DNA of 32,000 nt from Geopsychrobacter electrodiphilus DSM 16401 (GTDB lineage: Bacteria; Desulfobacterota; Desulfuromonadia; Desulfuromonadales; Geopsychrobacteraceae), in the NCBI RefSeq assembly GCF_000384395.1, contig NZ_ARWE01000001.1:1668894-1700893 (forward strand), written 5' to 3'. Below, piece by piece: positions 2-22,761 of the stretch; position 1 is the stretch's first letter; the number at the start of each line of letters is the position of its first letter. The notes below the pieces were generated by a model that saw only the letters and a program-made list of their open reading frames with translations, did not search any database and was not told the DNA's origin. Position numbers and translations under genes: made by a program.

Positions 2-922
2 CCCTTCTCCAAGGACGAACTGCAAAATTTGCGCGATATCGCCAGGAAACAGGATTACGATATTGTTTATCTGCCGGGAGAAGAGAAGGGCGATAAAACC
101 TTCAAAGCGTTAATCTCCTCTAATGGCAGTGATAAGTTCTATCAAGATTTTCCCTTCGATATAACACCTACAGATGATAATCGGCCCTTCTTCTACTACA
201 TGCTTAAGCCGGCCTCCTTTATGAACCTTTTCTCCTTTCCAGAGCGGAGTCCGTTTGAAGATCGTGCCATCCTCGTTTTACGTAACCTGTTGCTCGTTAC
301 CGCCTCACTGGTTGGCCTCGTGTTTGGGTTGCCTCTATTGTTGAACCGAAAAAAAGGTGGGACCGGGGTGGTTGCCCTGCGTCGTGCAAGTTACTTTAGT
401 TGTCTTGGCCTTGGCTTTATGATGATTGAAATCGGATTATTACGTCGTTTTATCCTGTTCCTTGGCCAACCGATTTACTCTCTGGCGGTGATTCTTTTTT
501 CATTGTTGATTTTTTCGGGTATCGGTAGTCGCCTCTCGGCGAGTAAATCCGGGGATAGAACCTTTCTTCGCCGGATTTTATTGGCACTTGTCTTGCTCAT
601 ACCAATTTACTGTTATCTTCTGCCAGGTGTCTTATCCAGCATGGTCGGTCTGTCGTTGCTGATGCGTTGTCTGATTGCGATTCTGCTTCTGGTTCCACTT
701 GCGCTGTTGCTGGGTATGCCCTTGCCACTTGGCATGGCCCTGTTGCACCACGATGGAAGTGCCGTCCCCTGGAGTTGGGGGATTAACGGAGCCGCGAGTG
801 TGCTTGGGACGATCCTGGCGGTTATTGTTGCGATGAATTTTGGTTTTAACGTCACGATCCTTATGGGGGCGGGGTTCTATCTGGTCGCCGGTTTTTTGCT
901 CCCACGGAGTCAAGCCCAGTGA
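2..922 (+). CDS. Fused MFS/spermidine-synthase-like membrane protein, C-terminal part (5' end outside window)
   Basis: The frame stays open from base 2 (PFSKDELQNLRDIARK...), so the track's M at 29 is internal. The soluble segment ends in the ...DITPTDDNRPFFYY motif typical of membrane-fused aminopropyltransferase-like proteins. About 5-6 hydrophobic helices follow. The stop overlaps the next start (GTGA). Confidence 0.5.
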   Translation, partial: PFSKDELQNLRDIARKQDYDIVYLPGEEKGDKTFKALISSNGSDKFYQDFPFDITPTDDNRPFFYYMLKPASFMNLFSFPERSPFEDRAILVLRNLLLVTASLVGLVFGLPLLLNRKKGGTGVVALRRASYFSCLGLGFMMIEIGLLRRFILFLGQPIYSLAVILFSLLIFSGIGSRLSASKSGDRTFLRRILLALVLLIPIYCYLLPGVLSSMVGLSLLMRCLIAILLLVPLALLLGMPLPLGMALLHHDGSAVPWSWGINGAASVLGTILAVIVAMNFGFNVTILMGAGFYLVAGFLLPRSQAQ

Positions 923-1983
923 GTTTTTTTATGCGTCTTTTGGTCCTTGTGTTGCTCCTGTTCGTTCAGGCCTGCTCGTCAGGGGAGACTGGCATTGAAG
1001 GGGTTTTGTCGTTTGAGCAGAAACCTGTCAGTCAGGCTCGGGTTGAATTTTATCTGAAAAGTGGTGAAAAACGTTCATCTTCCCCCTTCAGCGTCGCCAC
1101 GACTGATGCTGAAGGGACTTTTCATGCAGCATTGCCACCCGGCGCTTATTATCTGGTGGGCAAGAAGAAGGAACAGGGTGGCGGGGTTAATCGTATGTTG
1201 ATGATTGAGTACCCGAAAAACCCGGTGGTGGTGAAAAAGGGCTACAGTTCCATAGACAACCTTTCACTACGAGAGGTCGGCTTTGAGGGAGCTATTTCTG
1301 CCGATGGCAAGACAGTTGCGCGTGGGCAGCTTATGTATGCGGGTCAACCTCAACCTGATGCCTTTGTATATGTCTATACCCATGGGGGTGCTTTGACCGG
1401 TCCGGCCTATGGTCAGGTAGTACGCGCAGATAGTAACGGGCGCTTCGTACTTAATCTCTCGGCCGGAAGTTACTGGTTGGCAGCACGTAAGCGTGATGAT
1501 GGGTCAAGAGCTGGAGGGTTAAGCGCTGGTGATCTGAATGGGGTGTATGCAGGGAACCCTCTGATTGTTAAAACAGGCGATCACCCTGATTTGGGGAAAT
1601 GGCTTCTCGAACCCGTAACCAGCGCTTCCCGGCAGCGCCGTCTAGCCTTGGGCAAGTTCGCAAAAACGACCACCTGGGTGAGTGGGAGAGTTGTCGATGA
1701 GGATCAGAGGTCTGTTCCAGGGATCTATCTCTTCGCCTATCACGATAGTCGCATGATCGGGAAGCCGAACTATATCTCATCACCTACAACCGCGGATGGC
1801 AAGTTCAGAATTTATCTTGAGCAGGGTGGAGAGTATTTTATCGGCGCACGCAGTACCTTTGGTGGACCTCTGGAGCCAGGAGAATGGGTGGGAACCTTTG
1901 ATCAAAGTCCCGACCATCGGGTGAAGACGACGACCGGGGAAGCAACTGAGCTCGGCGACATCCTGGTGCGTGAGGTTTGGTGA
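919..1983 (+). CDS. A1: secreted lipoprotein with three CarboxypepD_reg-like (transthyretin/Ig-like) modules
   Basis: GTG start 9 nt after GGAG. Signal peptide plus lipobox (LLFVQAC). Three modules show the pattern G.V....G.P......V..Y........TTD.(D/E)G.F...L(P)PG.Y(Y/W)L. Paralog of the genes at 3170-4195 and 5525-6559. Confidence 0.7.
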   Translation: MSFFMRLLVLVLLLFVQACSSGETGIEGVLSFEQKPVSQARVEFYLKSGEKRSSSPFSVATTDAEGTFHAALPPGAYYLVGKKKEQGGGVNRMLMIEYPKNPVVVKKGYSSIDNLSLREVGFEGAISADGKTVARGQLMYAGQPQPDAFVYVYTHGGALTGPAYGQVVRADSNGRFVLNLSAGSYWLAARKRDDGSRAGGLSAGDLNGVYAGNPLIVKTGDHPDLGKWLLEPVTSASRQRRLALGKFAKTTTWVSGRVVDEDQRSVPGIYLFAYHDSRMIGKPNYISSPTTADGKFRIYLEQGGEYFIGARSTFGGPLEPGEWVGTFDQSPDHRVKTTTGEATELGDILVREVW

Positions 1984-3173
1984 TGCGTCTGCTGCTTCTG
2001 TTTCTTATGTTAATCTTTTGGAGTTCGATGGCTGAGGCCCGAATTATTCGAGGGCTTGAACATTGGCAAGGAGTGGTTCGGCTTTCTGAGAGCTTGCACG
2101 TTGAAAAAACCGGACGTTTGATTCTTGCACCGGGAACTCATGTCCAGTCTAACTTTGAGATAGAAGTTTCAGGTGTATTGCAGGCAACTGATGCCGCGTT
2201 CAGTGGTGAGGACTGGCCTGGTCTGGTCCTGAAAGGGACCGGTCCAGAGACCAAGCTGATGAATTGTCGCTTTTCTGGAGCACAAACTGCAATTACGGTC
2301 ATTGGAGGTGCGCCCCAGTTCAGCAGGTTAACCCTTGAAAATAATCGGATCGGCATAGAATTACGTCAGAAGACGGCGGCGTTGGTCGAGAATTCGACTT
2401 TTCGCAAGAATAACCGCGTTGGCCTGTTTTTAAAGGATGGCACCACCGCAACGGTCAAAGGGAACCTTTTTACCCAGCAGGGGAAATTTGGCGCATATAT
2501 TTATCGGGCAAAACCTGCAGTATTTGCGGGTAACCGGTTTACCGAAAATCCAACCGGCTTAATGATCTCTCACTATGGAAGTGATCCGTTGGTTTTTAAT
2601 AATTCTTTTGAAGGGAATTCTCTTGGCATTATGGTGGATCGGTCAGCGAATCCCAGGGTTCAAAAGAATGTCTTTGATGCTAATGTAACGGCCATAAAAC
2701 TTTACCGTCGCTCAGATCCCCTGATCGAAAAGAATCAATTTCAACGAAACCATCAGGCGATCCACATCAGTTTTTCTTCCTATCCCCAGATTCACTACAA
2801 CGATTTTATTTCCAACGGGAAAGCGCTGGTTCTGGAATTTCAGTCTTCCACCTGGGAAACGCAAAAAGGGGCAAGTGCCCGTCAGAAACAGATATCAGGG
2901 CAAGGCGCTTTTGGTGGACAGAAACAGGGGCAGGTTACTGAAGAACAGCGTCGCGCCCGCAATCTTGATGGAACCATTGATGCACGACAAAATTGGTGGG
3001 GGACTACCGAGACGCACGAACTTTTGAAGCTGGGGGCGGCCGCGAATTTACCCTGGATCGTTGATGGGAAAGATACGCCATTTTTTGAAGAGTCCGGCCA
3101 GGAGTTCCCACTTGATCAGGTTCGCTGGAGTCCTTACGGAAGCCATGCCTATTCTTCAGAGGGTTTGCCATGA
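1983..3173 (+). CDS. B1: secreted right-handed parallel beta-helix repeat protein (NosD/PbH1-like) with C-terminal NWWG module
   Basis: ATG at 1983 overlaps the A1 stop (TGATG); the track starts at a TTG at 1977. Signal peptide MRLLLLFLMLIFWSSMAEA. About 9 tandem 22-23 aa repeats of the form N.F..N..G(I/L).....S.P.(I/V).., for example NRFTENPTGLMISHYGSDPLVFN and NSFEGNSLGIMVDRSANPRVQK. NWWG is at 2991-3002. Confidence 0.7.
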   Translation: MRLLLLFLMLIFWSSMAEARIIRGLEHWQGVVRLSESLHVEKTGRLILAPGTHVQSNFEIEVSGVLQATDAAFSGEDWPGLVLKGTGPETKLMNCRFSGAQTAITVIGGAPQFSRLTLENNRIGIELRQKTAALVENSTFRKNNRVGLFLKDGTTATVKGNLFTQQGKFGAYIYRAKPAVFAGNRFTENPTGLMISHYGSDPLVFNNSFEGNSLGIMVDRSANPRVQKNVFDANVTAIKLYRRSDPLIEKNQFQRNHQAIHISFSSYPQIHYNDFISNGKALVLEFQSSTWETQKGASARQKQISGQGAFGGQKQGQVTEEQRRARNLDGTIDARQNWWGTTETHELLKLGAAANLPWIVDGKDTPFFEESGQEFPLDQVRWSPYGSHAYSSEGLP

Positions 3174-4195
3174 GAAAGTTTCTCTTTATTTTTGTTTGTC
3201 TCCTGTTTCTCCCGTCAGTTTTGTTGGCCGCTTCAGGGGTTAAGGGGCGGGTTGCCTGGCGCGGTGAGTTGATCCCCGGAGTGACGATAAAGGCTTATCA
3301 TTCAATTGATGCAATTGCGTTAAAAAAGGTGTTTGCTGTCTCGGGACCAACGGGACAGGACGGTACTTATCAACTTGAACTTCCCCCTGGACGTTATTAT
3401 CTGACCGCCGGTAATGGGTCCCAGCCTGGAGACTACTTCTGTTATTACAGTGGGGCACCGATTGTGGTTCCTGCAACAGGTTTTCGTCAGGTCGGTTTTA
3501 ATCTGATCCGTATTCCCCAACCCATCGAATCACGGACAGGAAAGCGTTCAGGGCTATGGGGTGAGATCAGCTTTCAGGGTCAGCCGCTAGAGCGCACCTA
3601 TCTCTATGTTTACAAGTCAACCGAAACTGACTTTAAAGGACCGGCATGGTTTCTCCAGCCTGTCGCAAAGGGAAAGTTTCGCATGTTTTTGCCCCCTGGT
3701 GACTATTGGCTCCTTGCGCGTAAGCGGATAAAAGGTGGACAGTATGGTCCGATTGAAATCGGGGATTATTTTAATTTCTACTATGGGAACCCGATCCATA
3801 TTGATAAGAACCAGCAACGTAACATCCAGCTGGAGACCATTACCCGGTTGTCGATGTTGGAAGAGGACTCGAGTGCCCCATTTGTCGGCATTTCAGGTCA
3901 AGTTGTCGGTTTTAAAGGTCAGCCCGAGGCCGGATTGAGGGTTTTTGCTTATCGCAGTAATAAAATGACAGGGACCCCGGCTTATATCTCTGCAACTACC
4001 GGCGAAGATGGACAGTTCAGACTTTCGATTCCCGAAACGGGTAAGTACTGGTTGCTGGCCCGTCAGGAACTCGGTGGTCCCGCTAAAACCGGCGAGTTAT
4101 ACGGCAAACTGACAATGAATCATGGGGAAGCTGTGGTTTTATCAGATTCTCAAATGAGCAGAGAGGTGCGAATTAATGTTGTCCCGCATCCTTAA
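3170..4195 (+). CDS. A2: secreted protein with three CarboxypepD_reg-like modules (paralog of A1/A3)
   Basis: ATGA overlap with the B1 stop. Signal peptide MRKFLFIFVCLLFLPSVLLAAS. Shares the motifs YWLLARKR...GP.E.GDYFNFYYGNPI and ARQELGGPAKTGELYG with A1 and A3. Confidence 0.7.
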   Translation: MRKFLFIFVCLLFLPSVLLAASGVKGRVAWRGELIPGVTIKAYHSIDAIALKKVFAVSGPTGQDGTYQLELPPGRYYLTAGNGSQPGDYFCYYSGAPIVVPATGFRQVGFNLIRIPQPIESRTGKRSGLWGEISFQGQPLERTYLYVYKSTETDFKGPAWFLQPVAKGKFRMFLPPGDYWLLARKRIKGGQYGPIEIGDYFNFYYGNPIHIDKNQQRNIQLETITRLSMLEEDSSAPFVGISGQVVGFKGQPEAGLRVFAYRSNKMTGTPAYISATTGEDGQFRLSIPETGKYWLLARQELGGPAKTGELYGKLTMNHGEAVVLSDSQMSREVRINVVPHP

Positions 4196-5528
4196 ACTTC
4201 TGATCGGCTTGCTTTTTCTGCCAGTTTTGGTGATGGCGCAGCCCATGAAGATTGACGCAGACACCCTGTGGCAAGGGACCGTCAAGGTGACAGCCCCAGT
4301 CGAGGTAACGGCTACCGGGACACTGCGCATCGCCCCCGGGACGCATATCGAGGTATCCAATATTGCTGCGACTATCTCGGTACAGGGTCAGCTCCTAGTT
4401 GATGGAACCGCCCAAAAGCCGGTCATTTTCAAGACAGTTAAAGGTTGGCAGGGGATTAGTTTTGTAGAAGCCCGGCCTGGGAGCCGGATCAGTTTTGCAG
4501 AATTTAAAGACTGTGCTCAAGCTCTGGGAATTATCGCCACATCGCCAAAAATTAACAATAATTCATTCACTGATTGTGATGTCGCGATAAAGCTGCTGCG
4601 GGAATCGAGCGCTGAAATCATTAATAATCACTTTGTCGATAATGGCCTGGGGCTGGGGATAGAGATGCGTTCGGCGCCCAGGGTTGTCGGTAACAGTTTC
4701 AGTGGGCAAAAAAAGAGTGGCATTACTGCATCAAATAGTAGTCGCGGGCTGATCGAGAGCAACACCTTTACCAAAAATGAACAGGGTGTAAGCCTTTTAC
4801 AGCAATATCCTGACAAGATCCGCAAAAATAGTTTTCTTGATAATCGGGTTGGTCTCTACTGCTATCAGACGCAAAACACTCCGGTGGTCGAGGAGAATCT
4901 TTTCGTCAATAATGAATACGCTCAGGTTAATTTTTCATTTTCCTTCCCTGTCGTTAAAAATAACCGGTTTATTAAAAACAAGACGGCTCTGCAGAACGAT
5001 CAGTTCGGCTCTGCGCTGGTGGAAAATAATCTGTTTCAAAAAAACGCAACCGCTATCTTTAATAACCGCAAGTCAAATCCCAGGGTTCATTTGAACAGTT
5101 TTGTCGAGAATAAACTTGCACTGTTTGTTGATTATTCGTCCTATCCCCTTGTCCATCAGAATAATTTCGAAAAAACTGGCGAAGGTGCTCACCTTGGGAT
5201 TTACCAGAGTGCCGATTGGGAAAAACGCTCAGGCTCCAAAAAGTTGGTCATGAAAAATGCTCAGGCACGCGGTAGCAAAAATGCCATGCTGGGTAAGGCC
5301 CCGACCGAGTATACCGATATTGTTGACCTTTCTGATAACTGGTGGGGTGACCAGACCAGCGCGCTCAAGAATGCGGCAAACGGTCAAAATTTAAATTTCT
5401 TTTATGATCGCAGGGATAAGCCATCAGTCGTTTATACTGACTTTGGTCCTGACAGTTATCAACTTGATATAATTAAATTCAAACCGATTCTGCTGGAGCC
5501 TGTGCCTGGGGCAGGACTCTTGCCATGA
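4176..5528 (+). CDS. B2: secreted parallel beta-helix repeat protein with C-terminal NWWG module (paralog of B1/B3)
   Basis: ATG 9 nt after GAGAGG, with a 20-nt overlap onto A2. Signal peptide ending VMA-QP. About 11 repeats (NSFTDCDVAIKLL.., NHFVDNGLGLGIE.., NSFLDNRVGLYCY.., NLFQKNATAIFNN..). NWWG is at 5337-5348. Confidence 0.7.
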   Translation: MLSRILKLLIGLLFLPVLVMAQPMKIDADTLWQGTVKVTAPVEVTATGTLRIAPGTHIEVSNIAATISVQGQLLVDGTAQKPVIFKTVKGWQGISFVEARPGSRISFAEFKDCAQALGIIATSPKINNNSFTDCDVAIKLLRESSAEIINNHFVDNGLGLGIEMRSAPRVVGNSFSGQKKSGITASNSSRGLIESNTFTKNEQGVSLLQQYPDKIRKNSFLDNRVGLYCYQTQNTPVVEENLFVNNEYAQVNFSFSFPVVKNNRFIKNKTALQNDQFGSALVENNLFQKNATAIFNNRKSNPRVHLNSFVENKLALFVDYSSYPLVHQNNFEKTGEGAHLGIYQSADWEKRSGSKKLVMKNAQARGSKNAMLGKAPTEYTDIVDLSDNWWGDQTSALKNAANGQNLNFFYDRRDKPSVVYTDFGPDSYQLDIIKFKPILLEPVPGAGLLP

Positions 5529-6559
5529 ACATTATACGTGCAATACTGTTTTTACTTTGTTGTTCAGGTAGCGTCATGGCGACGCAGGTCGAAGGCCGAG
5601 TAGTTTTAAACGAAAAGCCTCTCGCCAGCATGCAGGTTCAAGCTTACTCCGATCTTGACCCCTCGGGGAAACCGCTCGGTTCTATAGCAACAACTGATAC
5701 AGAGGGTTTATTCAGCCTGGACCTTCCCCCTGGTTTTGTCGCGCTTTATGCCCGTTCGAAGGATGGTCGCTACTTCGCCTTTTGTGGGCGGAATCCTCTG
5801 CAGGTCGGCTCTCTGCGGGTATGGGCTGGATTGCAGGCTGTTGAGGTGACTGATCCTGTTTTTTCAGTCTATGATGACCAGTATACGGCTTCCCTTGAGG
5901 GTGTAGTTACTTTTGAGGGTAAACCGATATCAGACGCTTTTGTTTCGCTGTATCTTGATGTCGCAGATGATCTGAAGGGCCAGGGGTATCGGCACTCGGC
6001 TGGTACCGGTGCGGATGGCTTTTTTGCTTTTGATGGCTTGCCGGAAAGTAATTACTTTTTGGTGGTGCGCAAAAGGCAGAATCTCGAACCTGTAGGGCCT
6101 TTGGTTGATGGTGATTTTATGGGTGTTTATGCAGGCAATCCGATAAGTCTGAAATCCGGGAGGACGGCCGTTGTCACTCTGCCGATGGTTGAACGTAAAT
6201 CAGGCTCCCGAAAAGGAGCACTTCCTGATCGCCCAGGCCCGATCAAATTGGCGGGACGCATAGTCGATATTTCAGGGAAGCCTCTGGCCAACCTACATTT
6301 TTTTGCGTATCGCGATCCTGTGATTGGACATCAGCGACCGGACGTTTTAAGTGCACAAACAGGCGCTGACGGTCAATTTGAGGTCAGTTTCCGTGAGCCG
6401 GGTATTTACTATGTTGGTGCTCGTGAAGCATATGGCGATTCGCCCGCTCCTGGGGAACTCTTTGGTCTTTATTCCGGTCGTGCTGATCATGGGTTGCAGA
6501 TTGTCGTTGGAAATAATGATCCGGTCGTGATTCAGGCGACCCCGATCCGTCTTGATTAA
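5525..6559 (+). CDS. A3: secreted protein with three CarboxypepD_reg-like modules (paralog of A1/A2)
   Basis: ATGA overlap with the B2 stop. Signal peptide ending SVMA-TQ. Motifs YFLVVRKR...GPLVDGDFMGVYAGNPI and AREAYGDSPAPGELFG. Confidence 0.7.
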   Translation: MNIIRAILFLLCCSGSVMATQVEGRVVLNEKPLASMQVQAYSDLDPSGKPLGSIATTDTEGLFSLDLPPGFVALYARSKDGRYFAFCGRNPLQVGSLRVWAGLQAVEVTDPVFSVYDDQYTASLEGVVTFEGKPISDAFVSLYLDVADDLKGQGYRHSAGTGADGFFAFDGLPESNYFLVVRKRQNLEPVGPLVDGDFMGVYAGNPISLKSGRTAVVTLPMVERKSGSRKGALPDRPGPIKLAGRIVDISGKPLANLHFFAYRDPVIGHQRPDVLSAQTGADGQFEVSFREPGIYYVGAREAYGDSPAPGELFGLYSGRADHGLQIVVGNNDPVVIQATPIRLD

Positions 6560-6572
6560 CAGGGGAATTCTC

Positions 6573-6872
6573 ATGTCCACTAGTAAATCCAAGCCTGCAC
6601 TTGAAATTCAACTGGAGAACGATGTCGCTCAGGGCATTTACGTCAATCTTGCTGTCGTAAATCATACTGATACCGAGGTCACTCTCGATCTAATTTATGT
6701 TCAGCCGCAAGAGTTGCGGGGCACTGTTCGCTCCCGCGTGATCGTATCACCGAGGCATGCAAAACGGTTGTTACGTGCATTGCAGGAGAATCTCGACCGT
6801 TACGAGCAGACTTTTGGAGAAATTAAAATAGAAAACACCCTCATAAAGCAGGATGTCAGTCCTTACCATTGA
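6573..6872 (+). CDS. DUF3467-like small protein (no signal peptide)
   Basis: ATG at 6573 lies 7 nt after AGGGGA; the track's TTG at 6552 is less likely. The segment ...LEIQLENDVAQGIYVNLAVVNHTDTEVTLDLIYVQP... matches my recollection of the DUF3467 core (E..GVYAN...I.H...EF.LDF). It is the only product in this operon stretch without an export signal. Confidence 0.55.
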   Translation: MSTSKSKPALEIQLENDVAQGIYVNLAVVNHTDTEVTLDLIYVQPQELRGTVRSRVIVSPRHAKRLLRALQENLDRYEQTFGEIKIENTLIKQDVSPYH

Positions 6873-7705
6873 TGAAAAATCTTCTTCTAACCCTTCTGTT
6901 TTTGTCGCTGGCTGTCTCCTGCGCGCCGCTAAGACCCCTTGAAGTTTCCGATCTGGTGATTTCCGACGCGCAGGTCTGGCAGGGGGATATTTATATCTCC
7001 GGGGTTGTTCGGGTTACTCGTGAGGGAAGTTTAACCCTTTTACCCGGAACTAAACTTGTTTTTAAGCGCATGGATCTTGACGGTGATGGGATCGGTGACG
7101 CAGCACTTGTTGTTGAAGGGAGTTTTGAGGCACGAGGAACGATCGAACGGCCCATTTTACTGACCAGCGGTGAGCCTGAGCCTAAACCGGGGGATTGGAA
7201 ATTTTTGTATTTTGATTATGCGCGTCAGGTCGAAATTTCACATTTGGTTTCAGAATATGCTTACAGCGGGGTCCAGATTCATTTTTGTCGCGCGCTAATT
7301 ACCTCGAGTGAATTTCGTAATAATGTGGATGGGGTGCGTTTTTCGACTGCGAATATTACGCTTCGACACAGTTTTCTTCATCACAATCGGCATGGTATTC
7401 GCTTTGAAGAACGAGGAGGACGTGGGATTATACGGCAAAACAGGATCAGTAATAATCAGATCGGGGTCTTTGTCGTCACCCGTGGCGCAGGGCGGACCCA
7501 TTTTGAGCAGAATGATATTGTCGAAAACCGGCCCTATCAAATAAAAATGGGCCTCGAACAAAAACACCCGCTCGACTTTCCTCGCAACTGGTGGGGAGAT
7601 GTCAGCGGTCTCTCGGTTGAGACAGTTTTTGATCAGCGTAAAGATCGTGCGTTAGGCCTGGTTTCTGGGACTGAGCCCTTGAATAAGCCAGTAACGGAGT
7701 TTTAA
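6872..7705 (+). CDS. B3: short lipoprotein parallel beta-helix repeat protein with C-terminal NWWG module
   Basis: ATG at 6872 overlaps the DUF3467 stop (TGATG). Lipobox LSLAVSC. The N-terminal box VWQGDIYISGVVRVTREGSLTLLPGTKLVF is shared with B1 and B2. About 5 beta-helix repeats. NWWG is at 7586-7597. Confidence 0.65.
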   Translation: MKNLLLTLLFLSLAVSCAPLRPLEVSDLVISDAQVWQGDIYISGVVRVTREGSLTLLPGTKLVFKRMDLDGDGIGDAALVVEGSFEARGTIERPILLTSGEPEPKPGDWKFLYFDYARQVEISHLVSEYAYSGVQIHFCRALITSSEFRNNVDGVRFSTANITLRHSFLHHNRHGIRFEERGGRGIIRQNRISNNQIGVFVVTRGAGRTHFEQNDIVENRPYQIKMGLEQKHPLDFPRNWWGDVSGLSVETVFDQRKDRALGLVSGTEPLNKPVTEF

Positions 7706-7726: not shown

Positions 7727-8323
7727 ATGAAAATTGTGAGCTCGGTATTGGTGTTGCTCCTGTTATTGTTTTGCTCTGTCGTAAACGTTTCGGCCTGTGT
7801 CGGAAAAACGCTTAAAATTGGGACCTCCGGTACGGTTCAACAGGAGGTTCTTGCCAACATTATCGCTGAGCTGATCAGCGAACGAACCGGTACGACAGTA
7901 AAGGTGGTGCCCTTTAAGGACAGCGCTGATGCGCATGCAGCCTTGCTGAAGGCCGATATTGACATGTTTGTTGAATACACCGGAGTCAGTCAAACACAGA
8001 TTCTGCAAGCACAACCGCTGAAGGATGCAACCGCCCTTTATAACTCCGTTAAGGATCGCTACAATCAGGATCTGAATCTTATCTGGCTGAAACCTTTTGG
8101 TTTTGATGCAGCGCAGAGTCTGGGCGTCTCCTTGCCGGCTGAAGCGGCCCCAGTTGTCCGCAAAGACACCCTGAAAAAGTTCCCGGCTTTGGCCCGCTTG
8201 ATTAATAAACTCGGTGGTAAAATCGACTTGCAGACTATTGCGCTGTTAGAAAAGGAGTCTGCCTCGGGAGTCCAGCCGAAGCAGGTCGCTCATGGTTTTC
8301 TCAAGAACAATCGCCTGATTTAG
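7727..8323 (+). CDS. Minimal OpuAC (glycine-betaine-type) substrate-binding-like lipoprotein
   Basis: AAGGAG-type RBS. Lipobox NVSAC. The N-terminal lobe pattern GKTLKIGTSGTVQQEVLANIIAELI...ALLKADIDMFVEYTGV...LIWLKPFGF resembles OpuAC/OsmX binding proteins. At 198 aa it is roughly two-thirds of the usual length. No ABC permease or ATPase gene is nearby. Confidence 0.5.
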   Translation: MKIVSSVLVLLLLLFCSVVNVSACVGKTLKIGTSGTVQQEVLANIIAELISERTGTTVKVVPFKDSADAHAALLKADIDMFVEYTGVSQTQILQAQPLKDATALYNSVKDRYNQDLNLIWLKPFGFDAAQSLGVSLPAEAAPVVRKDTLKKFPALARLINKLGGKIDLQTIALLEKESASGVQPKQVAHGFLKNNRLI

Positions 8324-8332
8324 GTATTGTCT

Positions 8333-9244
8333 ATGCTCGACCGTCGTCAGTTTATTTTCCAGTCCTTACGCAGTGCATGCCTGGCCGCGGTGGCCGGTTC
8401 TATCCCGCAACTTATTTTGCCAAGGGCCGTCTATGCTGCTCAGGATCGCGTTCTGGTAGTGCGAACCGGGGAAGATATCCCCCAACTTGTGCGTCAGACA
8501 GTCGCCGCCCTCGGAGGGATGGAGCGTTTTGTCAAACCAGGTGAAACCGTGGTGGTCAAGCCGAATATTGGCTGGGACCGCGGGGTTGACCTGGCGGCAA
8601 ATACACATCCGCTTGTCGTCAAAACGGTTGTGAGTCTTTGTCTTGAAGCTGGAGCTAAAAAGGTTCAACTTTTTGATCGCACTTGTAATGACCCACGCCG
8701 CTGTTATGTCAGTAGTGGCATTCAACAGGCCATTTCAGACCTCAATTCGATACAGGCAGAGCTTGTATATATGGACCGGCGCGCGTATAAAGAACTCGAA
8801 ATTTCCCAAGGTAAGGCTATCAATCGGTGGTCATTTTATCTGCCAGCGCTTGAGGCCGATCGGCTAATTAACCTTCCGATAGCCAAACATCACTCCATTT
8901 CAACCCTGACTCTTGGAATGAAAAACCTGATGGGAGTCATTGGCGGGAATCGCGGTATGCTGCATAGCAAGATCGCCGAAGCTCTCGCGGATATCAATAC
9001 CGTCATCCACTCTGATTTAACCTTGATCGATGCGACCCGTATTCTTGTAGCAAACGGACCGCAGGGCGGGCGTCTTGAGGACGTTGAAGTGAGAAACACT
9101 CTGATCGCATCGCCTCAGGTAGTGACAGCCGATGCATTTGCCTCAACCCTCTTCGGCTATCAACCAGATCAGATCGAAACGATCGTTGCTGGTTATCGGA
9201 GAGGTCTTGGCGAAATCGATCTGAGCCGGGTTCAGCGGCTCTGA
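8333..9244 (+). CDS. DUF362 domain protein with twin-arginine (Tat) signal
   Basis: ATG at 8333 (track: TTG at 8327). Tat motif MLDRRQFIF followed by an h-region and AxA (VYAAQ). DUF362-like blocks VVVKPNIGWDR, INLPIAKHHSISTLTLGMKNLMG and LIDATRILVANGPQGG. Confidence 0.6.
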   Translation: MLDRRQFIFQSLRSACLAAVAGSIPQLILPRAVYAAQDRVLVVRTGEDIPQLVRQTVAALGGMERFVKPGETVVVKPNIGWDRGVDLAANTHPLVVKTVVSLCLEAGAKKVQLFDRTCNDPRRCYVSSGIQQAISDLNSIQAELVYMDRRAYKELEISQGKAINRWSFYLPALEADRLINLPIAKHHSISTLTLGMKNLMGVIGGNRGMLHSKIAEALADINTVIHSDLTLIDATRILVANGPQGGRLEDVEVRNTLIASPQVVTADAFASTLFGYQPDQIETIVAGYRRGLGEIDLSRVQRL

Positions 9245-10770
9245 TGTCTCTCAGTCGTAAATGGCGAATTTTAGTTCAAAGCCTGACTTTATTGGGTTTT
9301 TGTTGGCTTTTCCTGCAAACAGAATATCGTGGGACAGACGAACTAGCCTATCCCGTCAGCCTACTCTTTCGTCTCGATCCTCTGGCTCTTGTATCCGCGT
9401 TTTTTGCTTCAGGTAAAACCGACTTTATTCTGCTATGGCCAGCATTTCTGTTGCTTGTCTTGACGATTATTTTCGGACGATTTTTTTGCGGTTGGCTCTG
9501 TCCTTTAGGTTCTTTGCTCGACTTTTTAGGGGCTCCTTTACGCCGTTCTCAAAGTCGATTCTCTGGTTGGCCGAAGTTTAAATACTACCTGCTCTCGGCT
9601 TTGACTTTAGCGAGTCTTTGCGGCCTGCAACTGTTTGGCTTGTTTGACCCTCTGAGTATCTTTTTACGTAGCCTTACATTAGCTATTAATCCGGTGTGGA
9701 ACCTCCTGGCTAACACGACCTTTGATTGGCTCTATCAAGCGAAACTTCCGCTGATAAGCTCCACAGCTGATGTTGTTTATCCCTTCTTTCGTGATCATCT
9801 GCTGGCTTTCAGACAACCTGTTTTTCTGCTCACGATTTTGACAGCCTTCGTCTTTTTAGCGGTTATTCTACTCGAACGATTACAACCTCGTTTCTGGTGT
9901 CGCAATCTTTGCCCGCTCGGCGCTTTGCTCGGTCTTTGTTCGCAACCAAGCCGATTGCAACGAACTCCTCAGTCCGATTGTTCCGACTGCAAGCAATGTT
10001 CTCTTCAGTGTTACATGGGGGCATCGGCCGCAGATTCAAGTCATGCCGCAGAATGCATCCGCTGTCTCGACTGCCTCGATTTTTGCCCGAATCAGCGGGT
10101 GAAATTTCACTTCAGCAAGAGGGGGGAAAAGCGTTTTGACCTGTCTCGGCGCACCTTGCTGGCTGCTTCAGTTGGTGGGGTTATGTTAGCACCTCTCGCT
10201 GCCGCGGCACCGCTGAGCGCAAGCTATCGCAATGATTTAATCCGCCCTCCAGGGGCTACTGGAGAGTCCGAGTTTTTACGTCGTTGTATCCGTTGTGGTG
10301 AATGCATGAAGGTTTGTATTGGCGGGGCATTGCACCCGGATTTATTGCGAGGCGGGGCTTTTTCGCTTTGGTCGCCTGTGGTTGTGGCGCGACTTGGATA
10401 TTGTGAATATGACTGTACCCTGTGCGGGCAGGTCTGCCCGACAGGGGCAATCAAATCGTTGGAAATTAAGCAAAAACGCCAAATAAAAATCGGTTTGGCC
10501 GTTATTGATAAAAATCGTTGTCTGCCATTTGCGCGTGGTCAGGAATGTCTGGTTTGTGAGGAGCACTGTCCCACCGGTAAAAAAGCGATCACGTTTGATC
10601 GCCACAAGGACCTTGTTGAAAGTGAAGCGCGGGACCTATTGCAACCGCGTGTGCTAAAAGAGCTCTGTATCGGATGTGGCATCTGCGAAACCCGTTGTCC
10701 TGTGGCCGGTCGTAGCGCAATTATGATTATCAGTGAAGGTGAAAGCAGAGCTCCGCAGGGCCTTTTGTGA
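9244..10770 (+). CDS. Membrane polyferredoxin: NapH-like N-terminal half fused to a NapG-like four-cluster ferredoxin half
   Basis: TGATG overlap with the DUF362 stop. Several TM helices and two CX3CP motifs (FFCGWLCPLGSL, FWCRNLCPLGAL). Cys clusters: CSDCKQCSLQC, CIRCLDCLDFCP, then an internal SRRTLLAASVGGVMLAPLAAAA segment, then LIRPPGA..E.EFLRRCIRCGECMKVC, CTLCGQVCP, CLVCEEHCP and CIGCGICETRCP. Confidence 0.7.
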   Translation: MSLSRKWRILVQSLTLLGFCWLFLQTEYRGTDELAYPVSLLFRLDPLALVSAFFASGKTDFILLWPAFLLLVLTIIFGRFFCGWLCPLGSLLDFLGAPLRRSQSRFSGWPKFKYYLLSALTLASLCGLQLFGLFDPLSIFLRSLTLAINPVWNLLANTTFDWLYQAKLPLISSTADVVYPFFRDHLLAFRQPVFLLTILTAFVFLAVILLERLQPRFWCRNLCPLGALLGLCSQPSRLQRTPQSDCSDCKQCSLQCYMGASAADSSHAAECIRCLDCLDFCPNQRVKFHFSKRGEKRFDLSRRTLLAASVGGVMLAPLAAAAPLSASYRNDLIRPPGATGESEFLRRCIRCGECMKVCIGGALHPDLLRGGAFSLWSPVVVARLGYCEYDCTLCGQVCPTGAIKSLEIKQKRQIKIGLAVIDKNRCLPFARGQECLVCEEHCPTGKKAITFDRHKDLVESEARDLLQPRVLKELCIGCGICETRCPVAGRSAIMIISEGESRAPQGLL

Positions 10771-10983: not shown

Positions 10984-11913
10984 TCAGGGGCAGGGGGATT
11001 GAATTGTTTCAACCCTGTTGCGGCCATTATTTTTAGCGAGATAGAGAGCTTCATCTGCCATTCTGATTAACTCATCTTCAGATTTTAATTTATCTCCTGA
11101 AACGGCGGCAACGCCTAGACTAATTGTCAACTTGAGCGGACCGAGGTTGCCGCTGAAATGGTAATTTTCAATGCGCTGGCGGATCCGGTCAGCGACCTCG
11201 GCGGCATGGGCAAGATTCGTTTCTGGAAGAACCAGGCAAAACTCCTCTCCTCCATAGCGTGCCGCCAGATCGTAGGGGCGCAAATGCTCCCTCAGCAAAT
11301 CAGCGACAAGAATCAGGACCTCATCCCCGGCTTGATGACCATATTTATCATTCACGTTCTTAAAGTGATCAATGTCGCACATGATCAGGGCGCAGGGGGA
11401 TAGATTCCGTTGGCAGCGGTTGAGCTCATTTTCAAGCATCTCTGTTAATGAACGTCGATTGCACAGGCGCGTCAGGGGGTCTGTTTGAGAAAGTTCAAGC
11501 AGCAGGCGATTGCTGCGGCGTAATTCATCCTGCAATGTTTTGAGTTGCAGATGTACTTTGAGCCTGGCGATAAGCTCTGCTGGTTCGAACGGTTTTATAA
11601 TATAATCACTTGCGCCACTCTCGAGCCCACGGACTTTAGAAGCAACATCGTCATGGCTGGTGAGCATGATCACAGGTTTGTCATTTAAATCCTCACGAGA
11701 CTGGAGCAGGGCAAGAAACTTCAAGCCATCGATTCCGGGCATTTCAATGTCACACAATATAACATCGACATGATTATTGACCAGCAGCTTGAACCCCTCA
11801 ACACCGCTGTTCGCCTGCAAGACCCTTTGGAACAGGTGGTTTTGGGTTATGGTTTCCATTACTTGCTGACGAATAGCTGCAGAATCATCGATAATCAGAA
11901 GTGTGCGTTCCAT
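10984..11913 (-). CDS. Response regulator receiver + GGDEF diguanylate cyclase (PleD/WspR-like)
   Basis: Preferred start is MERTLLIIDDS at 11913 (track: 11949). Receiver residues DD, CDIEMPGIDG, MLTS and KPF are present. A coiled linker leads to the GGDEF domain, which has an active GGEEF and an RxxD I-site exactly 5 residues upstream (RPYDLAARYGGEEF). Confidence 0.85.
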   Translation of the reverse strand: MERTLLIIDDSAAIRQQVMETITQNHLFQRVLQANSGVEGFKLLVNNHVDVILCDIEMPGIDGLKFLALLQSREDLNDKPVIMLTSHDDVASKVRGLESGASDYIIKPFEPAELIARLKVHLQLKTLQDELRRSNRLLLELSQTDPLTRLCNRRSLTEMLENELNRCQRNLSPCALIMCDIDHFKNVNDKYGHQAGDEVLILVADLLREHLRPYDLAARYGGEEFCLVLPETNLAHAAEVADRIRQRIENYHFSGNLGPLKLTISLGVAAVSGDKLKSEDELIRMADEALYLAKNNGRNRVETIQSPCP

Positions 11914-12009
11914 ATCTGGCCTTAATTTAACGTTATGCGTAAATATCAATAGGACGCGAAGAATAAATAGAGATTATTTTAATAAAAAAGTTAAGCAAAG
12001 TACGCCTAG

Positions 12010-12303
12010 TTAGCAGTTGCCACCTCCACCGCAATCGCAGCTGGGTTCGTCTCCGGTGAGCCAACTATGAATAATGGCACTGGCACAACCAACACCAGCG
12101 TGGACCGTTATTGCTCCAACGGGGCAGTTGCCGACGCAGGCACCGCATTCCATGCAGTTATCCAGTGCGGTGATCCAGGCTAAATCATCTTCGATCTTGA
12201 AAACGGCCCGTGGACAAACGATAGCACAAAGCCCACAACCGACGCATTTCTCCTGCTCAAGTTTGAGGGTCACAACGTTCTTTAAGTATTTTTGATGAGC
12301 CAT
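12010..12303 (-). CDS. hgcB: HgcB, 2x[4Fe-4S] ferredoxin of the mercury methylation pair
   Basis: Lies immediately downstream of hgcA. ATG at 12303 is 8 nt after AGGGA (track: 12309). MAHQKYLKNVVTLKLEQEKCVGCGLCAIVCP plus CMECGACVGNCP give two CX2CX2CX3CP motifs. The tail is Cys-rich (SCDCGGGGNC). Size is about 97 aa. Confidence 0.85.
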   Translation of the reverse strand: MAHQKYLKNVVTLKLEQEKCVGCGLCAIVCPRAVFKIEDDLAWITALDNCMECGACVGNCPVGAITVHAGVGCASAIIHSWLTGDEPSCDCGGGGNC

Positions 12304-12318
12304 CGTCATTATCCCTGT

Positions 12319-13503
12319 TTAAAAGGCGGTCCACAGCCAGAGTCCAAGTGCGATAACAACCGCAATTAACTGGCAGGGGATTGCGATTCGCATCTCTTTT
12401 TCGACTCCAGAGGGCGATGTGTAGGTCGAGGAACCGGTGAAGTTCATTGCCGCATAACTTGAGATAGCCGTCACCTGTAATAGTAACGCGATATGGATCG
12501 TGCTCCCGGCATCGGGGAGAAGACTGCCGCCCAGAAGAATGGCTATCGCCAATCCTGTCCAAATACCTTTGAGGGAGAATGCCCGGCCCGGAAGCCAGGG
12601 CAGCAGAACCGGAGTGATGACTGCTCCAGCGACAAGCCCCGAAAATCCCGTCGCGATGGCGCTACCACCACGAATCAAAGCCGCGGAGGTAGAAAAGACC
12701 TGACTACCGATGCCCCCCAGCAGCAGGAGAGCTAATGCTGTATAGAAAATTTGACGGTAAAGAATTGTAATTTCAACCGGAGTTAAAACAATGCGGTCCA
12801 AAAGAGTGAAGTTGACGCGTCTCATCGCCGGTGTCGCCTGCCGGTTGTACGTGAAAAAGGCAGGAAGATCCTGAGCCCTGACCGGGCCGTAAACAACATT
12901 GAAATCGCACCCATTTTTTACCAGATGGGCAGCAACTCCCGGGGCGCCTAACTGAGGAACGATCAGGCGTCGGTGGGTAACCAGTTTTGTGAGGTGAAAT
13001 TTTTTAACGCAGCGGATAATCTCATCGGTGCCAAACGTTCCCTTGCCGGCAGCGCACCAGACGTTAATCCCTTTGGTATCAATTACCAGGATCCAGGCAT
13101 TGATGCTGCCCAATGATCTACGCAGAACGTCGAAACTCAGTTTATAGTTGGCCGAAATCAGAACTTCAGCTTCCGCATCTGGTGTGCCGACGGCATAAAT
13201 TCCGGGAGCGACAGCATAATGGTTACGACCAATGCCCCAACGCATGGCAATGCGTCCAAACTGATCAACCCGGTTGAGTTTGCGTGCAACGACCGGGATC
13301 TCTCCAATGGGCGTATCCAGCCAGTTTTCTATAAACCCTTCAAGCTTGTACTCTGGTTTCCTGTGATCAGCCACAGGCGGACAGCAGGATTGTTTACCGG
13401 ACTTCGGGGGGCAGCAGTTTTGCACGGTGTCGGGCGCATTTACAGGACAACAGCTGTCGGTGGGTGCTACTTTTGGAGTGCAACAGTTTTCTGTTTCAGT
13501 CAT
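12319..13503 (-). CDS. hgcA: HgcA, corrinoid protein of the mercury methylation pair
   Basis: The diagnostic cap-helix motif GINVWCAAGKGTFGT is present (NVWCAAGK encoded at 13042-13065). The C-terminal half contains about 5 TM helices. Paired with the ferredoxin gene 9-15 nt downstream. Confidence 0.9.
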   Translation of the reverse strand: MTETENCCTPKVAPTDSCCPVNAPDTVQNCCPPKSGKQSCCPPVADHRKPEYKLEGFIENWLDTPIGEIPVVARKLNRVDQFGRIAMRWGIGRNHYAVAPGIYAVGTPDAEAEVLISANYKLSFDVLRRSLGSINAWILVIDTKGINVWCAAGKGTFGTDEIIRCVKKFHLTKLVTHRRLIVPQLGAPGVAAHLVKNGCDFNVVYGPVRAQDLPAFFTYNRQATPAMRRVNFTLLDRIVLTPVEITILYRQIFYTALALLLLGGIGSQVFSTSAALIRGGSAIATGFSGLVAGAVITPVLLPWLPGRAFSLKGIWTGLAIAILLGGSLLPDAGSTIHIALLLQVTAISSYAAMNFTGSSTYTSPSGVEKEMRIAIPCQLIAVVIALGLWLWTAF

Positions 13504-13513
13504 GTTGCTGCCT

Positions 13514-14563
13514 TCAGCGGGTGGCCAGACGCTGACGCGCAGATCTCAGCATCTCTTCAGTGGTTGCCCAATCAACACATTTGTCCGTTATAGAGACCCC
13601 GTAGCGCAACTGACTTAAGTCTGCCGGAATTGATTGGTTGCCAGCCTCAAGGTTACTTTCAATCATAACCGAATTGAGGGCTGGATTGCCGGCAAGAATC
13701 TGGTCAATGACGTCACTTAAAACGGCTCCCTGACGGGTATGGTCCTTGTTAGAATTAGCGTGACTGCAGTCGACCATAATTGAAGTTGGCAGATTGCTTT
13801 TTTGGAGTAGTTCGGTAGTTTCGGCGATAGCCTCGGGATGGAAATTGGGCCCACTGTTCCCGCCGCGTAGCACGATATGGACATCCGGATTACCGCGGGT
13901 ATGAACGATTGAGGTGCGCCCATCAAAGTTAATCCCGAGAAAACTGTGCTCGTGCAAAGAGGCACTCATGGCATCGGTGGCAACATTCAAGCCACCATCA
14001 GTGCCATTTTTAAATCCAACCGGAAAGGAGAGACCGCTGGCCATTTCACGATGAGTCTGTGATTCCGTTGTACGAGCGCCAATAGCGCCCCAGCTGATCA
14101 TATCCGAAAGGTATTGAGGGGTGATCGGGTCGAGCATTTCACTCGCAATCGGTAAACCGAGTTCAGTGATGGCACAAAAAAGCCTGCGCGCAACTCCCAG
14201 GCCCTTTGAGATACGGTGACTGCCGTCGAGGTCTGGGTCGTTTATCAATCCCTTCCAGCCAATCGTTGTGCGTGGCTTTTCAAAATATACGCGCATCACG
14301 ATGAAGATCTGATCTTCAACTTCTTTGGCCAAGACGGCCAGGCGACGGGCATATTCTATGGCAGCTCGCGGTTCATGAATTGAGCAGGGGCCAACAACTG
14401 CCATAAGACGTCGATCCTGGCCATGGAGAATGGCTTTGACCTTCTCCCGTGAAAAGTACACAAGTTGAGCACTCTTTTCCGTTAAGGGGAAGACCTGCTT
14501 CAGATCCGAGGGTGCGATAATAGGAGTCACTTTATGAATATTGAGATTGTTGGTCTGTACCAT
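13514..14563 (-). CDS. aroG: 3-deoxy-7-phosphoheptulonate (DAHP) synthase, class I (AroF/G/H type)
   Basis: 349 aa. Blocks GPCSIHE, FEKPRTTIGWKGLINDP, MVDCSHANS and PVGFKNGTDG are typical of class I-alpha DAHP synthases. Which isozyme or feedback specificity applies cannot be decided from sequence by eye. Confidence 0.85.
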   Translation of the reverse strand: MVQTNNLNIHKVTPIIAPSDLKQVFPLTEKSAQLVYFSREKVKAILHGQDRRLMAVVGPCSIHEPRAAIEYARRLAVLAKEVEDQIFIVMRVYFEKPRTTIGWKGLINDPDLDGSHRISKGLGVARRLFCAITELGLPIASEMLDPITPQYLSDMISWGAIGARTTESQTHREMASGLSFPVGFKNGTDGGLNVATDAMSASLHEHSFLGINFDGRTSIVHTRGNPDVHIVLRGGNSGPNFHPEAIAETTELLQKSNLPTSIMVDCSHANSNKDHTRQGAVLSDVIDQILAGNPALNSVMIESNLEAGNQSIPADLSQLRYGVSITDKCVDWATTEEMLRSARQRLATR

Positions 14564-16305: not shown

Positions 16306-16442
16306 TTTAATCTGGAGTGCTGAACATCCCGGGTACAAAAGCTGCCCGAGACGCTTTACATGATGGCTGCTATCCTATATTTTTTCTAGCGTCATCCAGA
16401 TTTAGGTGGTTCTACTTACTCAATATAATTAAAGGAGACGAC

Positions 16443-17297: not shown

Positions 17298-17412
17298 GGT
17301 TGATTGACAAAATCTCTGTTGTTGAAAAAACTTCTTTGGTCCTTCATTGGTGGACTGATAGTCTGTCTTCGCAGAGTTTGATTTTTTTTTACGATTAGGA
17401 GGGTAGGTCCGC

Positions 17413-18495: not shown

Positions 18496-18522
18496 TACCC
18501 CTAAATTTGCATGGAGGAGAAA

Positions 18523-18906: not shown

Positions 18907-18923
18907 TGGGTCAAGACATAAAC

Positions 18924-18958
18924 CCGGCGGTGCATGCAAGCGCCGCCGGTTTTTTTTT
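18924..18958 (+). terminator. Intrinsic terminator between gcvH and gcvPA
   Basis: 10-bp GC-rich stem: CCGGCGGTGC (18924-33) pairs with GCGCCGCCGG (18940-49), including one G-U pair, around a 6-nt loop. A run of 9 T follows (18950-58). Confidence 0.8.
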
Positions 18959-18983
18959 GCGCTACCTTCAGTGAGGAACTTTC

Positions 18984-22705: not shown

Positions 22706-22761
22706 GTTTGTCGAGTATACCCGTGTTGATATGCATCTTCCAGCGGCATTATAGCCTCTTT

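Follow-up and report, generated by a model that had tools for sequence, protein, structure and literature searches.

A 32,000-nucleotide (nt) stretch of the genome of the marine metal-reducing bacterium Geopsychrobacter electrodiphilus DSM 16401 (RefSeq assembly GCF_000384395.1, contig NZ_ARWE01000001.1, positions 1,668,894 to 1,700,893), hereafter the window, carries six genes for exported proteins of two unrelated families, A and B, which alternate in the order A1-B1-A2-B2-A3-B3 with a small DUF3467 gene between A3 and B3. We propose that the products of these six genes are exported and make up the structural core of a multi-gene envelope system in Desulfuromonadales-type bacteria, in which the A and B proteins would form a scaffold serving a redox process; we hold this reading tentatively, at a little short of an even chance. 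It draws on the conservation of the array together with its flanking genes, on natural fusions between A and B proteins, and on the recurrence of A/B genes beside different electron-transfer modules.

Organization of the A/B gene array

The seven co-directional open reading frames (ORFs) reported by the first-pass annotation of the window were all found on the forward strand between positions 919 and 7705:

A1, 919..1983, + strand: 354 amino acids (aa) from GTG 919, with an alternative start at ATG 931; predicted lipoprotein with three transthyretin/CarboxypepD_reg-like domains
B1, 1983..3173, + strand: 396 aa from ATG 1983, the longest ORF beginning at TTG 1977; secreted right-handed beta-helix protein whose signal peptide lacks a lipobox
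A2, 3170..4195, + strand: 341 aa; secreted protein with three beta-sandwich domains
B2, 4176..5528, + strand: 450 aa; secreted beta-helix protein that ends in a helical cap and contains an NWWG motif
A3, 5525..6559, + strand: 344 aa; secreted protein with three beta-sandwich domains
DUF3467 protein, 6573..6872, + strand: 99 aa; match to PF11950 with an E value (E) of 2.5e-26; optional insert between A3 and B3
B3, 6872..7705, + strand: 277 aa; predicted short beta-helix lipoprotein of the B0/B3 subfamily

Signal peptides were found in all six A/B proteins. In orthologues whose start codons were picked by alignment to the window proteins, the A1 signal peptide ends in Cys in 45 of 48 cases (36 with a strict lipobox) and that of B3 in 33 of 40, whereas such a Cys is rare in B1 (6 of 48) and A3 (4 of 49), and A2 and B2 have plain signal peptides, a strict lipobox being present in only 1 of 56 and 4 of 55 orthologues, respectively. 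Therefore, the first and last genes of the array most likely encode lipoproteins, and A2, A3, B1 and B2 are predicted to be soluble periplasmic proteins. The DUF3467 protein has no signal peptide although its neighbours A3 and B3 are exported; it may be a cytoplasmic chaperone or regulator.

The first-pass annotation described every junction in this region as a start/stop overlap. This is true of six junctions, namely GTGA between A1 and the preceding gene, which encodes a membrane protein with a spermidine-synthase-like domain; TGATG from A1 to B1; ATGA from B1 to A2; a 20-nt overlap from A2 to B2; ATGA from B2 to A3; and TGATG from the DUF3467 gene to B3. It is not true of the junction between A3 and the DUF3467 gene, where a gap of 13 nt is the most likely arrangement. 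The latter gene probably starts at ATG 6573, which has a GGGG Shine-Dalgarno-like sequence and is used by independent gene calls and by the orthologues; an overlap with A3 would require a start at TTG 6552, and none of approximately 50 orthologous loci has an overlap at this junction. The four core junctions overlap in 85–91% of approximately 50 orthologous loci, the A1/B1 junction by 1 or 4 nt, the B1/A2 and B2/A3 junctions by 4 nt, and the A2/B2 junction by 20–26 nt (45 of 53 loci). Downstream of the array, a TGATG overlap between the DUF362 gene and the NapH-NapG fusion gene (see below) is kept in 80% of the loci. Such conserved start/stop overlaps are compatible with the translational coupling that had been suggested for the array. 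Every start is also preceded by its own Shine-Dalgarno-like sequence. Matches to internal promoters and terminators are no commoner than in shuffled sequence, and no RNA element was detected with Rfam in the window or in three related loci.

Conservation and duplication history of the array

A2 and B2 each match a G. electrodiphilus protein at 100% identity. A scan of one genome per species with an A2 orthologue profile identified 54 loci in which the array is orthologous, and several metagenome contigs can be added to this number. Nearly all of the 54 loci are of the Desulfuromonadales type, including those of Geopsychrobacter, Geothermobacter, Desulfuromonas, Malonomonas, Trichloromonas and many metagenome-assembled genomes. 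The alternating architecture first described for the window thus recurs in other genomes, as A1-B1-A2-B2-A3-(DUF3467)-B3 with the same flanking genes. Each array gene forms its own orthologous group, with 42–75% identity among orthologues and 24–30% among paralogues. Because these separate groups occur in the same order across the loci, the duplications must predate this radiation.

Several variants of the array were also found. The DUF3467 gene is missing from approximately 12 orthologous loci, where A3 lies directly before B3, and also from a distant lineage (loci L053, L055, L057, L062 and L063), in which B1 is missing and A1 overlaps A2. Upstream of the array, some genomes encode a further A paralogue, A0, which is missing in the Geopsychrobacter clade although the neighbouring B paralogue, B0, is retained. 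Since B1 or A0 has been lost in some lineages and the fusions described below bridge both types of junction, the A-B pair can no longer be regarded as a fixed unit. Nor do the trees demonstrate the suggested co-amplification of a two-gene unit. In a bootstrapped neighbour-joining tree, B1 and B2 were separated from B0 and B3 in 191 of 200 replicates, in agreement with profile cross-scores, which indicates that family B comprises at least two ancient lineages. The tree of A0–A3 is an equidistant star in which any split was recovered in 20 or fewer of 200 bootstraps. Given this star and the two-subfamily split of B, congruent co-duplication of A and B is not demonstrated.

One explanation of such an array is that its products are independent secreted paralogues, i.e. 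interchangeable binders or adhesins whose genes are adjacent by tandem duplication alone and which neither form an A:B complex nor have any link to the flanking genes. The loss of single members (B1, A0), the adhesin-like folds of both families and the lack of any complementary pattern in net charge between mature A and mature B proteins would agree with this explanation. However, six distinct orthologous groups have kept the same order and overlapping junctions in more than 50 species despite 70% divergence between paralogues, the flanking genes are also conserved, and A and B alternate even though the two families are unrelated. The independent fusions in both orders, to which we turn in the next section, likewise speak against it, and we consider this explanation very unlikely.

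Natural fusions of A and B proteins

In an exhaustive profile search of 1.84 billion representative proteins, 966 relatives of A passed a limit of E ≤ 1e-10, and 194 passed one of E ≤ 1e-30. Among the best 150 relatives, eight are A-to-B fusions (668–911 aa), three are B-to-A fusions (770–794 aa), and one is an A-to-methyltransferase fusion. Typing with family profiles showed that the A-to-B proteins consist of an A3-like A and a B3-type helix, while the B-to-A proteins combine B1 with an A2-like A (P0278 and P0299) or B2 with an A3-like A (P0305).

The downstream part of the A/B fusions has no signal peptide, the linkers are hydrophilic, and several of the clusters that they represent contain more than one member or contig, indicating that the fusions are genuine. 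Artefacts of assembly or gene calling were therefore rejected as their source, all 11 A/B fusion proteins representing separate 50%-identity clusters. These proteins reinforce the idea of a joint action of A and B and provide the strongest support in this analysis for a physical association of the two families. Because the fusions bridge both the B-to-A and the A-to-B3 junctions, the functional unit would not simply be A followed by B and would instead be chain-like.

In the A-to-methyltransferase fusion (P0312), a methyltransferase domain directly adjoins a full A module, and no transmembrane segment is present. In addition, positions 12036–12698 of locus L059 encode a class I methyltransferase that carries a signal peptide of its own. 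Together, these two proteins imply that a methyltransferase-fold protein is exported.

Structural features of family A

The three A proteins of the window share 29–30% pairwise identity over their full lengths (E 2e-36 to 4e-35). The CarboxypepD_reg-like modules ascribed to them by the first-pass annotation were confirmed, because A1, A2 and A3 score 51.7, 54.8 and 52.4 bits, respectively, with PF13620, for which the gathering threshold is 32.3 bits. A scores of 43–52 bits with DUF4198 (PF10670) also exceed the threshold of that family (34 bits), yet the matches cover only profile positions ~146–208 of 209, i.e. the C-terminal transthyretin-like part, and A was not assigned to DUF4198. No NCBIfam model exists for the A proteins.

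In an AlphaFold2 model of A2 (mean predicted local distance difference test score, pLDDT, 90.7), three prealbumin-like beta-sandwich domains follow one another. A2 orthologues are 54–74% identical, and the family motifs noted earlier proved invariant among A1, A2 and A3 orthologues at R184-K185-R186, N207-P208, A297-R298 and E309 (A2 numbering); G206 is invariant in one A orthologue alignment and nearly so in another. The best Foldseek matches of A2 in the PDB are multidomain pilins of the BcpA, TIE and RrgB type (E 1e-7 to 1e-4), although the whole-protein template modelling (TM) score is only ~0.2, as individual domains alone are matched; single domains also match carboxypeptidase D. A2 thus shares tandem prealbumin-like beta-sandwich domains with CnaB/transthyretin-like pilins and adhesins and with the regulatory domain of carboxypeptidase D. 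Unlike Gram-positive pilins and adhesins, however, A has no sortase signal, and its specific loops (RKR, GD..Y.GNP and AR....G..GE..G) have no counterpart in any of these proteins.

Structural features of family B

B1 and B2 share 24% identity over 426 columns (E 1e-33), and B3 is more distant (E 3e-4 to B1 and 6e-9 to B2). That the family consists of beta-helix proteins, as had been reported, is supported by PF13229 scores of 98.8, 88.2 and 35.2 bits for B1, B2 and B3, respectively (gathering threshold, 25.9 bits); the threshold of PF05048 (NosD) is also exceeded. The corresponding E values are 3e-28 (Beta_helix) and 2e-26 (NosD) for B1, 1e-30 (NosD) for B2 and 1e-8 (Beta_helix) for B3. The AlphaFold2 model of B2 (pLDDT 92.5) is a beta-helix with strands throughout residues 24–340, followed by the helical C-terminal cap. 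An N-terminal box shared by the family had been described; W..G and PGT in this box are invariant, which was established for B1 and B2. None of the invariant positions common to the A paralogues, or of those common to B2 orthologues and B1, is Cys or His, and no shared invariant catalytic-type residues were found within the helix of B1 and B2.

The B0/B3 subfamily has features of its own. A Ca-binding-like DxDxDGxGD loop (aa 68–76 of B3; nt 7073–7099 of the window) is present in 35 of 40 B3 and 27 of 32 B0 proteins and in 0 of 104 B1/B2 proteins. Downstream of the loop in B3 lies a conserved polar ladder of the B3/B0 type, consisting of H138, R150, D154, R157, R178, E180, E181 and R182.

B was not assigned to NosD, because the TIGR04247 scores of B1, B2 and B3 (67.5, 53.9 and 28.1 bits, respectively) are far below the cut-off of 300 bits and the matches are partial, covering the repeat region only; furthermore, nosZ, nosF, nosY and nosL were found neither in the 32-kb window nor within 10 kb in approximately 60 related loci. 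Foldseek matched B2 with a probability of 1.0 to many beta-helix structures, which include phage tailspike depolymerases, AlgG (E 4e-4), PL6 lyases and NosD; with TM scores of 0.27–0.45 and ~12% identity, these are generic fold matches. An AlgG/PL6-type enzyme was likewise rejected, since TM scores of 0.27–0.37 and identities of 11–14% to these enzymes reflect generic beta-helix similarity and neither DPHD nor D.HD motifs are present in B1, B2 or B3.

These fold matches raise the question of an alginate-like, polymer-processing scaffold in the periplasm. Here, the B proteins would be glycan epimerases, lyases or binders and the A proteins their carbohydrate-binding partners, with the lipoproteins as tethers and the large membrane protein as a polymer translocase or modifier. 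AlgG, PL6 lyases and tailspike depolymerases are indeed among the top Foldseek matches of B2, CarboxypepD_reg domains have a carbohydrate-binding-like fold, and both the polar ladder and the Ca-binding-like loop of B3/B0 would suit such a function. The AlgG/AlgX/AlgK proteins of alginate producers similarly combine a beta-helix protein, a protein with beta-sandwich modules and lipoprotein tethers. However, these top matches have TM scores of only 0.27–0.39 at 10–14% identity, the resemblance to AlgG is at the level of the fold only (13% identity), the components of the present system are iterated paralogues, B1 and B2 share no invariant residues of catalytic type within the helix, and the conserved neighbours are redox proteins. 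In addition, no glycosyltransferase, polymerase, Wza/porin or sugar-nucleotide (sugar-activation) genes are present in the conserved cluster. We therefore regard polymer processing as an improbable function.

Searches of Pfam, NCBIfam and the PDB and with Foldseek gave no assignment of the array to a known system, and no description of this gene arrangement was found in the literature searched. There was also no meaningful PDB sequence match for A, B2 or the DUF362 protein. Profile searches did not place A or B in a characterised enzyme or transport family, and the view of the first-pass annotation that the system is uncharacterised was thus upheld.

The larger conserved cluster

The array is not a self-contained unit; it forms the core of a larger conserved, predicted operon that also includes the membrane protein and a quinol-linked redox module, and lies in the middle of a 14–16 gene cluster conserved in more than 50 species. 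The usual order is FmdE, ArsP_1 permease, (FG-GAP/UnbV_ASPIC protein), (A0), B0, membrane protein and the array, followed in most loci by an OpuAC-like protein, a DUF362 protein and a NapH-NapG fusion. The features that flank the array in the window, and examples of A0 in other loci, are as follows:

Membrane protein, 2..922, + strand: C-terminal 306 aa of a protein of ~785–830 aa, cut by the window edge
OpuAC-like half-size binding protein, 7727..8323, + strand: 198 aa; match to PF04069 (E 7.5e-24)
DUF362 protein, 8327..9244, + strand: predicted to be exported by twin-arginine translocation (Tat); probable start ATG 8333; match to PF04015 (E 7.5e-45)
NapH-NapG-like fusion, 9244..10770, + strand: 508 aa; membrane polyferredoxin and putative quinol dehydrogenase
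A0: L031, 2312–3409; L030, 18537–19571, reverse strand; L055, 3891–4886; and others

A0 is the fourth A paralogue; in the genomes that have it, its gene lies directly upstream of B0 and overlaps it. The Geopsychrobacter clade lacks A0, the FG-GAP gene and B0 being just 79 nt apart in L002. The B0 protein (580–630 aa) consists of a B3-type N-terminal beta-helix, on which the B3 profile scores ~200 bits, fused to a PQQ/BamB-like beta-propeller. FmdE and the ArsP_1 permease open the conserved cluster (e.g. L002, 262–1625; L003, 53–1485). In L030, this pair is found together with A0-B0 in a block that is inverted and placed at the opposite end of the cluster. The best named match of the permease is the SO_0444 Cu/Zn efflux family (E 2e-21).

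Full-length orthologues of the membrane protein are encoded directly upstream of A1 in at least 37 loci (e.g. L002, 5399–7753). By hydropathy, the protein consists of ~7 transmembrane helices, a spermidine-synthase-like soluble domain and 6–7 more helices. The soluble domain aligns with spermidine synthase 1INL (E 8e-10) and keeps the GPGGG motif; in the same alignment, IIDSTDP is replaced by IQASAVFG, so that the catalytic D-S-T-D reads Q-A-S-A. Because this motif is gone and the NF002010 scores are 27.8–33.8 bits against a cut-off of 260, the protein was not regarded as a spermidine synthase; its PF01564 scores (22.2–23.2 bits) lie around the threshold of 22.9. The positive-inside rule, the only evidence on this point, suggests that the soluble domain faces the periplasm, where S-adenosylmethionine (SAM) and decarboxylated SAM are not expected.

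The OpuAC-like gene follows B3 in 29 loci. In its product, A-C-V-G-K-T is invariant where the signal peptide ends, and no ATP-binding cassette transporter genes are present nearby. The DUF362 protein scores 153.9 bits with PF04015 (gathering threshold, 24 bits) over profile positions 1–198 of 200. The protein has a conserved twin-arginine motif, and KPNIGWDR, C103, C118, K185, H187 and H211 are invariant. DUF362 belongs to Pfam clan CL0471 together with the LarA N-terminal domain (PMC11770544). The NapH-NapG fusion contains a NapH match in its N-terminal half (E 2e-21) and a NapG match at residues 301–498 (E 2.6e-30), with four hydrophobic segments and four CxxCxxCxxxC motifs; an internal Tat-like segment (SRRTLL, aa 301) is located where the Tat signal of NapG itself would fall. 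These features are shared with the NapGH of periplasmic nitrate reductase systems, from which the present protein differs in that both halves form one polypeptide, the adjacent Tat protein is DUF362, and NapA, NapB and NapC are absent. A true NapGH was also rejected on the grounds that the equivalog cut-offs are not reached (NapG, 105.4 bits against 269; NapH, 72.5–76.6 bits against 213–234) and that napA and napB genes occur neither in the window nor in the related loci. As a pair, DUF362 and the NapH-NapG fusion resemble a periplasmic cofactor enzyme that is served by a quinol dehydrogenase of its own.

Redox proteins encoded beside A/B genes

A NapGH-like protein and Tat-DUF362 are encoded beside the array in most loci, and other redox proteins occur in other loci. 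In two Desulfuromonadales-type loci (L038 and L045), multihaem cytochromes are encoded just downstream of B3, the usual position of OpuAC-DUF362-NapGH. The locus of Geothermobacter hydrogeniphilus (L014) has no OpuAC, DUF362 or NapGH gene; it contains a divergent operon upstream of the membrane protein gene (599–5264, reverse strand), which encodes an EB_dh haem-b protein, a 246-aa two-domain A-like protein, a HEAT-repeat protein and an Fer4_5 membrane Fe-S protein. In L030 and L047, A-like ORFs of 247 and 251 aa, respectively, likewise lie upstream on the other strand, and L033 and L050 have comparable A-like matches.

The A-B fusion genes are typically preceded by genes for giant multihaem cytochromes and/or giant surface proteins with fibronectin type III (fn3) and SBBP domains and are typically followed by a gene for a two-domain A-like protein of 264–281 aa. 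The cytochromes, found on several unrelated metagenome contigs, have Geobacter-type C4xC/C2xCH repeats. The fn3/SBBP/DUF2341 proteins are ~2300 aa long where complete and more than 3100–3400 aa where cut by the locus edge. L059 and L066 also carry genes for a large B protein, for additional A-like proteins and for the same kind of small OpuAC-like protein. The neighbours of the fusion genes are as follows:

L058: adjacent protein with 8 haem motifs, beside the A-B fusion
L059, 1–9873: at least 15 haem motifs; surface protein of 2303–2354 aa
L061, 1–10010: giant surface protein beside the A-B fusion
L065, 1–8522: cytochrome of 1514 aa, with 5 haem motifs in its visible end; surface protein of 2468 aa
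L067, 1–5361: 32 haem motifs (CxxCH, visible part)
L068, 1–9387: surface protein with more than 3100 aa visible at the locus edge

As the array or the fusions occur beside NapGH, multihaem cytochromes or EB_dh modules, the A/B core recurs beside different electron-transfer modules.

The combination of B proteins with DUF362 and a NapGH-like protein could alternatively be explained by a nos-like maturation and electron-supply cluster. In such a cluster, DUF362 would be a periplasmic metallo- or cofactor enzyme to which the NapGH-like fusion feeds electrons, as NosGH/NosR do for NosZ, while the B and A proteins and the lipoproteins would deliver metal or sulfur species and the ArsP-type permease and FmdE would supply the metal. 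In clade II nos clusters, electrons are donated by NapG/NapH-type proteins. Like the present cluster, nos clusters contain periplasmic right-handed beta-helix proteins, lipoproteins and a NapG/NapH-type polyferredoxin next to a Tat-exported protein. NosD profiles are the best named-family matches of B (PF05048, E 1e-30; TIGR04247, E 8e-19), NosD is among the Foldseek matches of B2 (TM 0.34–0.45), the NapH-NapG fusion directly follows DUF362, whose Tat signal is conserved, and the permease matches a Cu/Zn efflux family. However, the TIGR04247 scores fall far short of the NosD cut-off, NosZ, NosF, NosY and NosL are lacking, the Tat protein belongs to the LarA clan rather than being a copper enzyme, and nos clusters have no counterpart of the three or four B paralogues with a three-domain A protein beside each. 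Six to eight accessory proteins would also be excessive for one 300-aa enzyme. Moreover, Geothermobacter, L038 and L045 keep the whole array with no OpuAC, DUF362 or NapGH beside it, and the distant A-B fusion loci contain no DUF362 gene. A nos-like role is thus rather unlikely.

A possible working of the A/B system

If the six A/B genes do encode the core of an envelope scaffold, the genes from the membrane protein through NapH-NapG would be expressed as one operon, presumably from a single transcript. The A and B proteins would be exported by Sec, A1 and B3 becoming lipid-anchored and A2, A3, B1 and B2 remaining soluble in the periplasm. Judging from the fusions, they may bind head to tail, with the C-termini of B1/B2-type proteins beside the N-termini of A proteins and the C-termini of A proteins beside the N-termini of B3/B0-type proteins. 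The outcome would be a hetero-oligomeric scaffold or chain and not a set of enzymes, in keeping with the absence of Cys and His from the shared invariant positions of the A paralogues and of B2 and B1, the lack of an AlgG-type DPHD motif and the purely generic fold matches. This scaffold would work with the membrane protein, whose soluble domain probably faces the periplasm, and may serve an extracytoplasmic redox process. In Geopsychrobacter, the process would be driven by the NapGH-like quinol-oxidising polyferredoxin and Tat-exported DUF362, in whose place other lineages would use multihaem cytochromes or a module of haem-b (EB_dh) and Fer4_5 proteins. What the scaffold holds, as substrate or partner, may be an insoluble electron acceptor, a polymer at the surface or the enzyme itself.

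Several observations weigh against this proposal. Because A and B have no redox-active residues, the link to electron transfer comes only from the gene neighbourhood, and 54 of the 56 Desulfuromonadales-type loci have no multihaem cytochrome within 10 kb. The pairing of A and B is not obligate, B1, A0 and DUF3467 having each been lost in some lineages. Furthermore, a purely structural role is not established, since the polar ladder of B3/B0 may form a catalytic or ligand-binding groove.

A more specific version of the scaffold proposal is that a lipid-anchored B/A chain, built head to tail as in the fusions, physically links an inner-membrane module, consisting of the membrane protein with its 13–14 helices, the NapGH-like protein and DUF362, to an extracytoplasmic target. 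Giant multihaem cytochromes would then replace the redox module elsewhere, and the system would offer metal- and sulfur-respiring bacteria a new route, or scaffold, for redox chemistry in the periplasm or outside the cell. We consider this version possible but doubtful.

Other features of the window

Flanking genes with no relation to the array occupy positions 10984–14563 (reverse strand) and 16317–21796 (forward strand). They encode a response-regulator diguanylate cyclase, a CdhD-like corrinoid-protein homologue with a small ferredoxin, 3-deoxy-D-arabino-heptulosonate 7-phosphate synthase, DivIVA and FolD, as well as all components of a glycine cleavage set (T, H, P1 and P2). At 21809–29994, a TonB-like protein and a phosphate acetyltransferase are followed by F and E proteins of the type II secretion system/type IV pilus type and by PilN/PilO-like proteins; the ORFs at 27094–28044 and 29161–29994 have no Pfam match.

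Biological significance

In the cluster described here, exported proteins of a scaffold type, present as iterated paralogues, are combined with three unusual components, namely a quinol-linked Fe-S module, a Tat-exported protein of the LarA clan and an apparently periplasmic domain of the spermidine-synthase/methyltransferase fold. Desulfuromonadales are model organisms for the respiration of insoluble minerals and electrodes. If the A/B chain does tether redox modules to an extracytoplasmic partner, extracellular electron transfer would gain a structural component that is not a cytochrome, and the chain would raise the question of what role a SAM-enzyme fold plays outside the cytoplasm. Even on a conservative reading, our analysis defines two new orthologous protein families, and the natural fusions between them make the proposed interaction directly testable.

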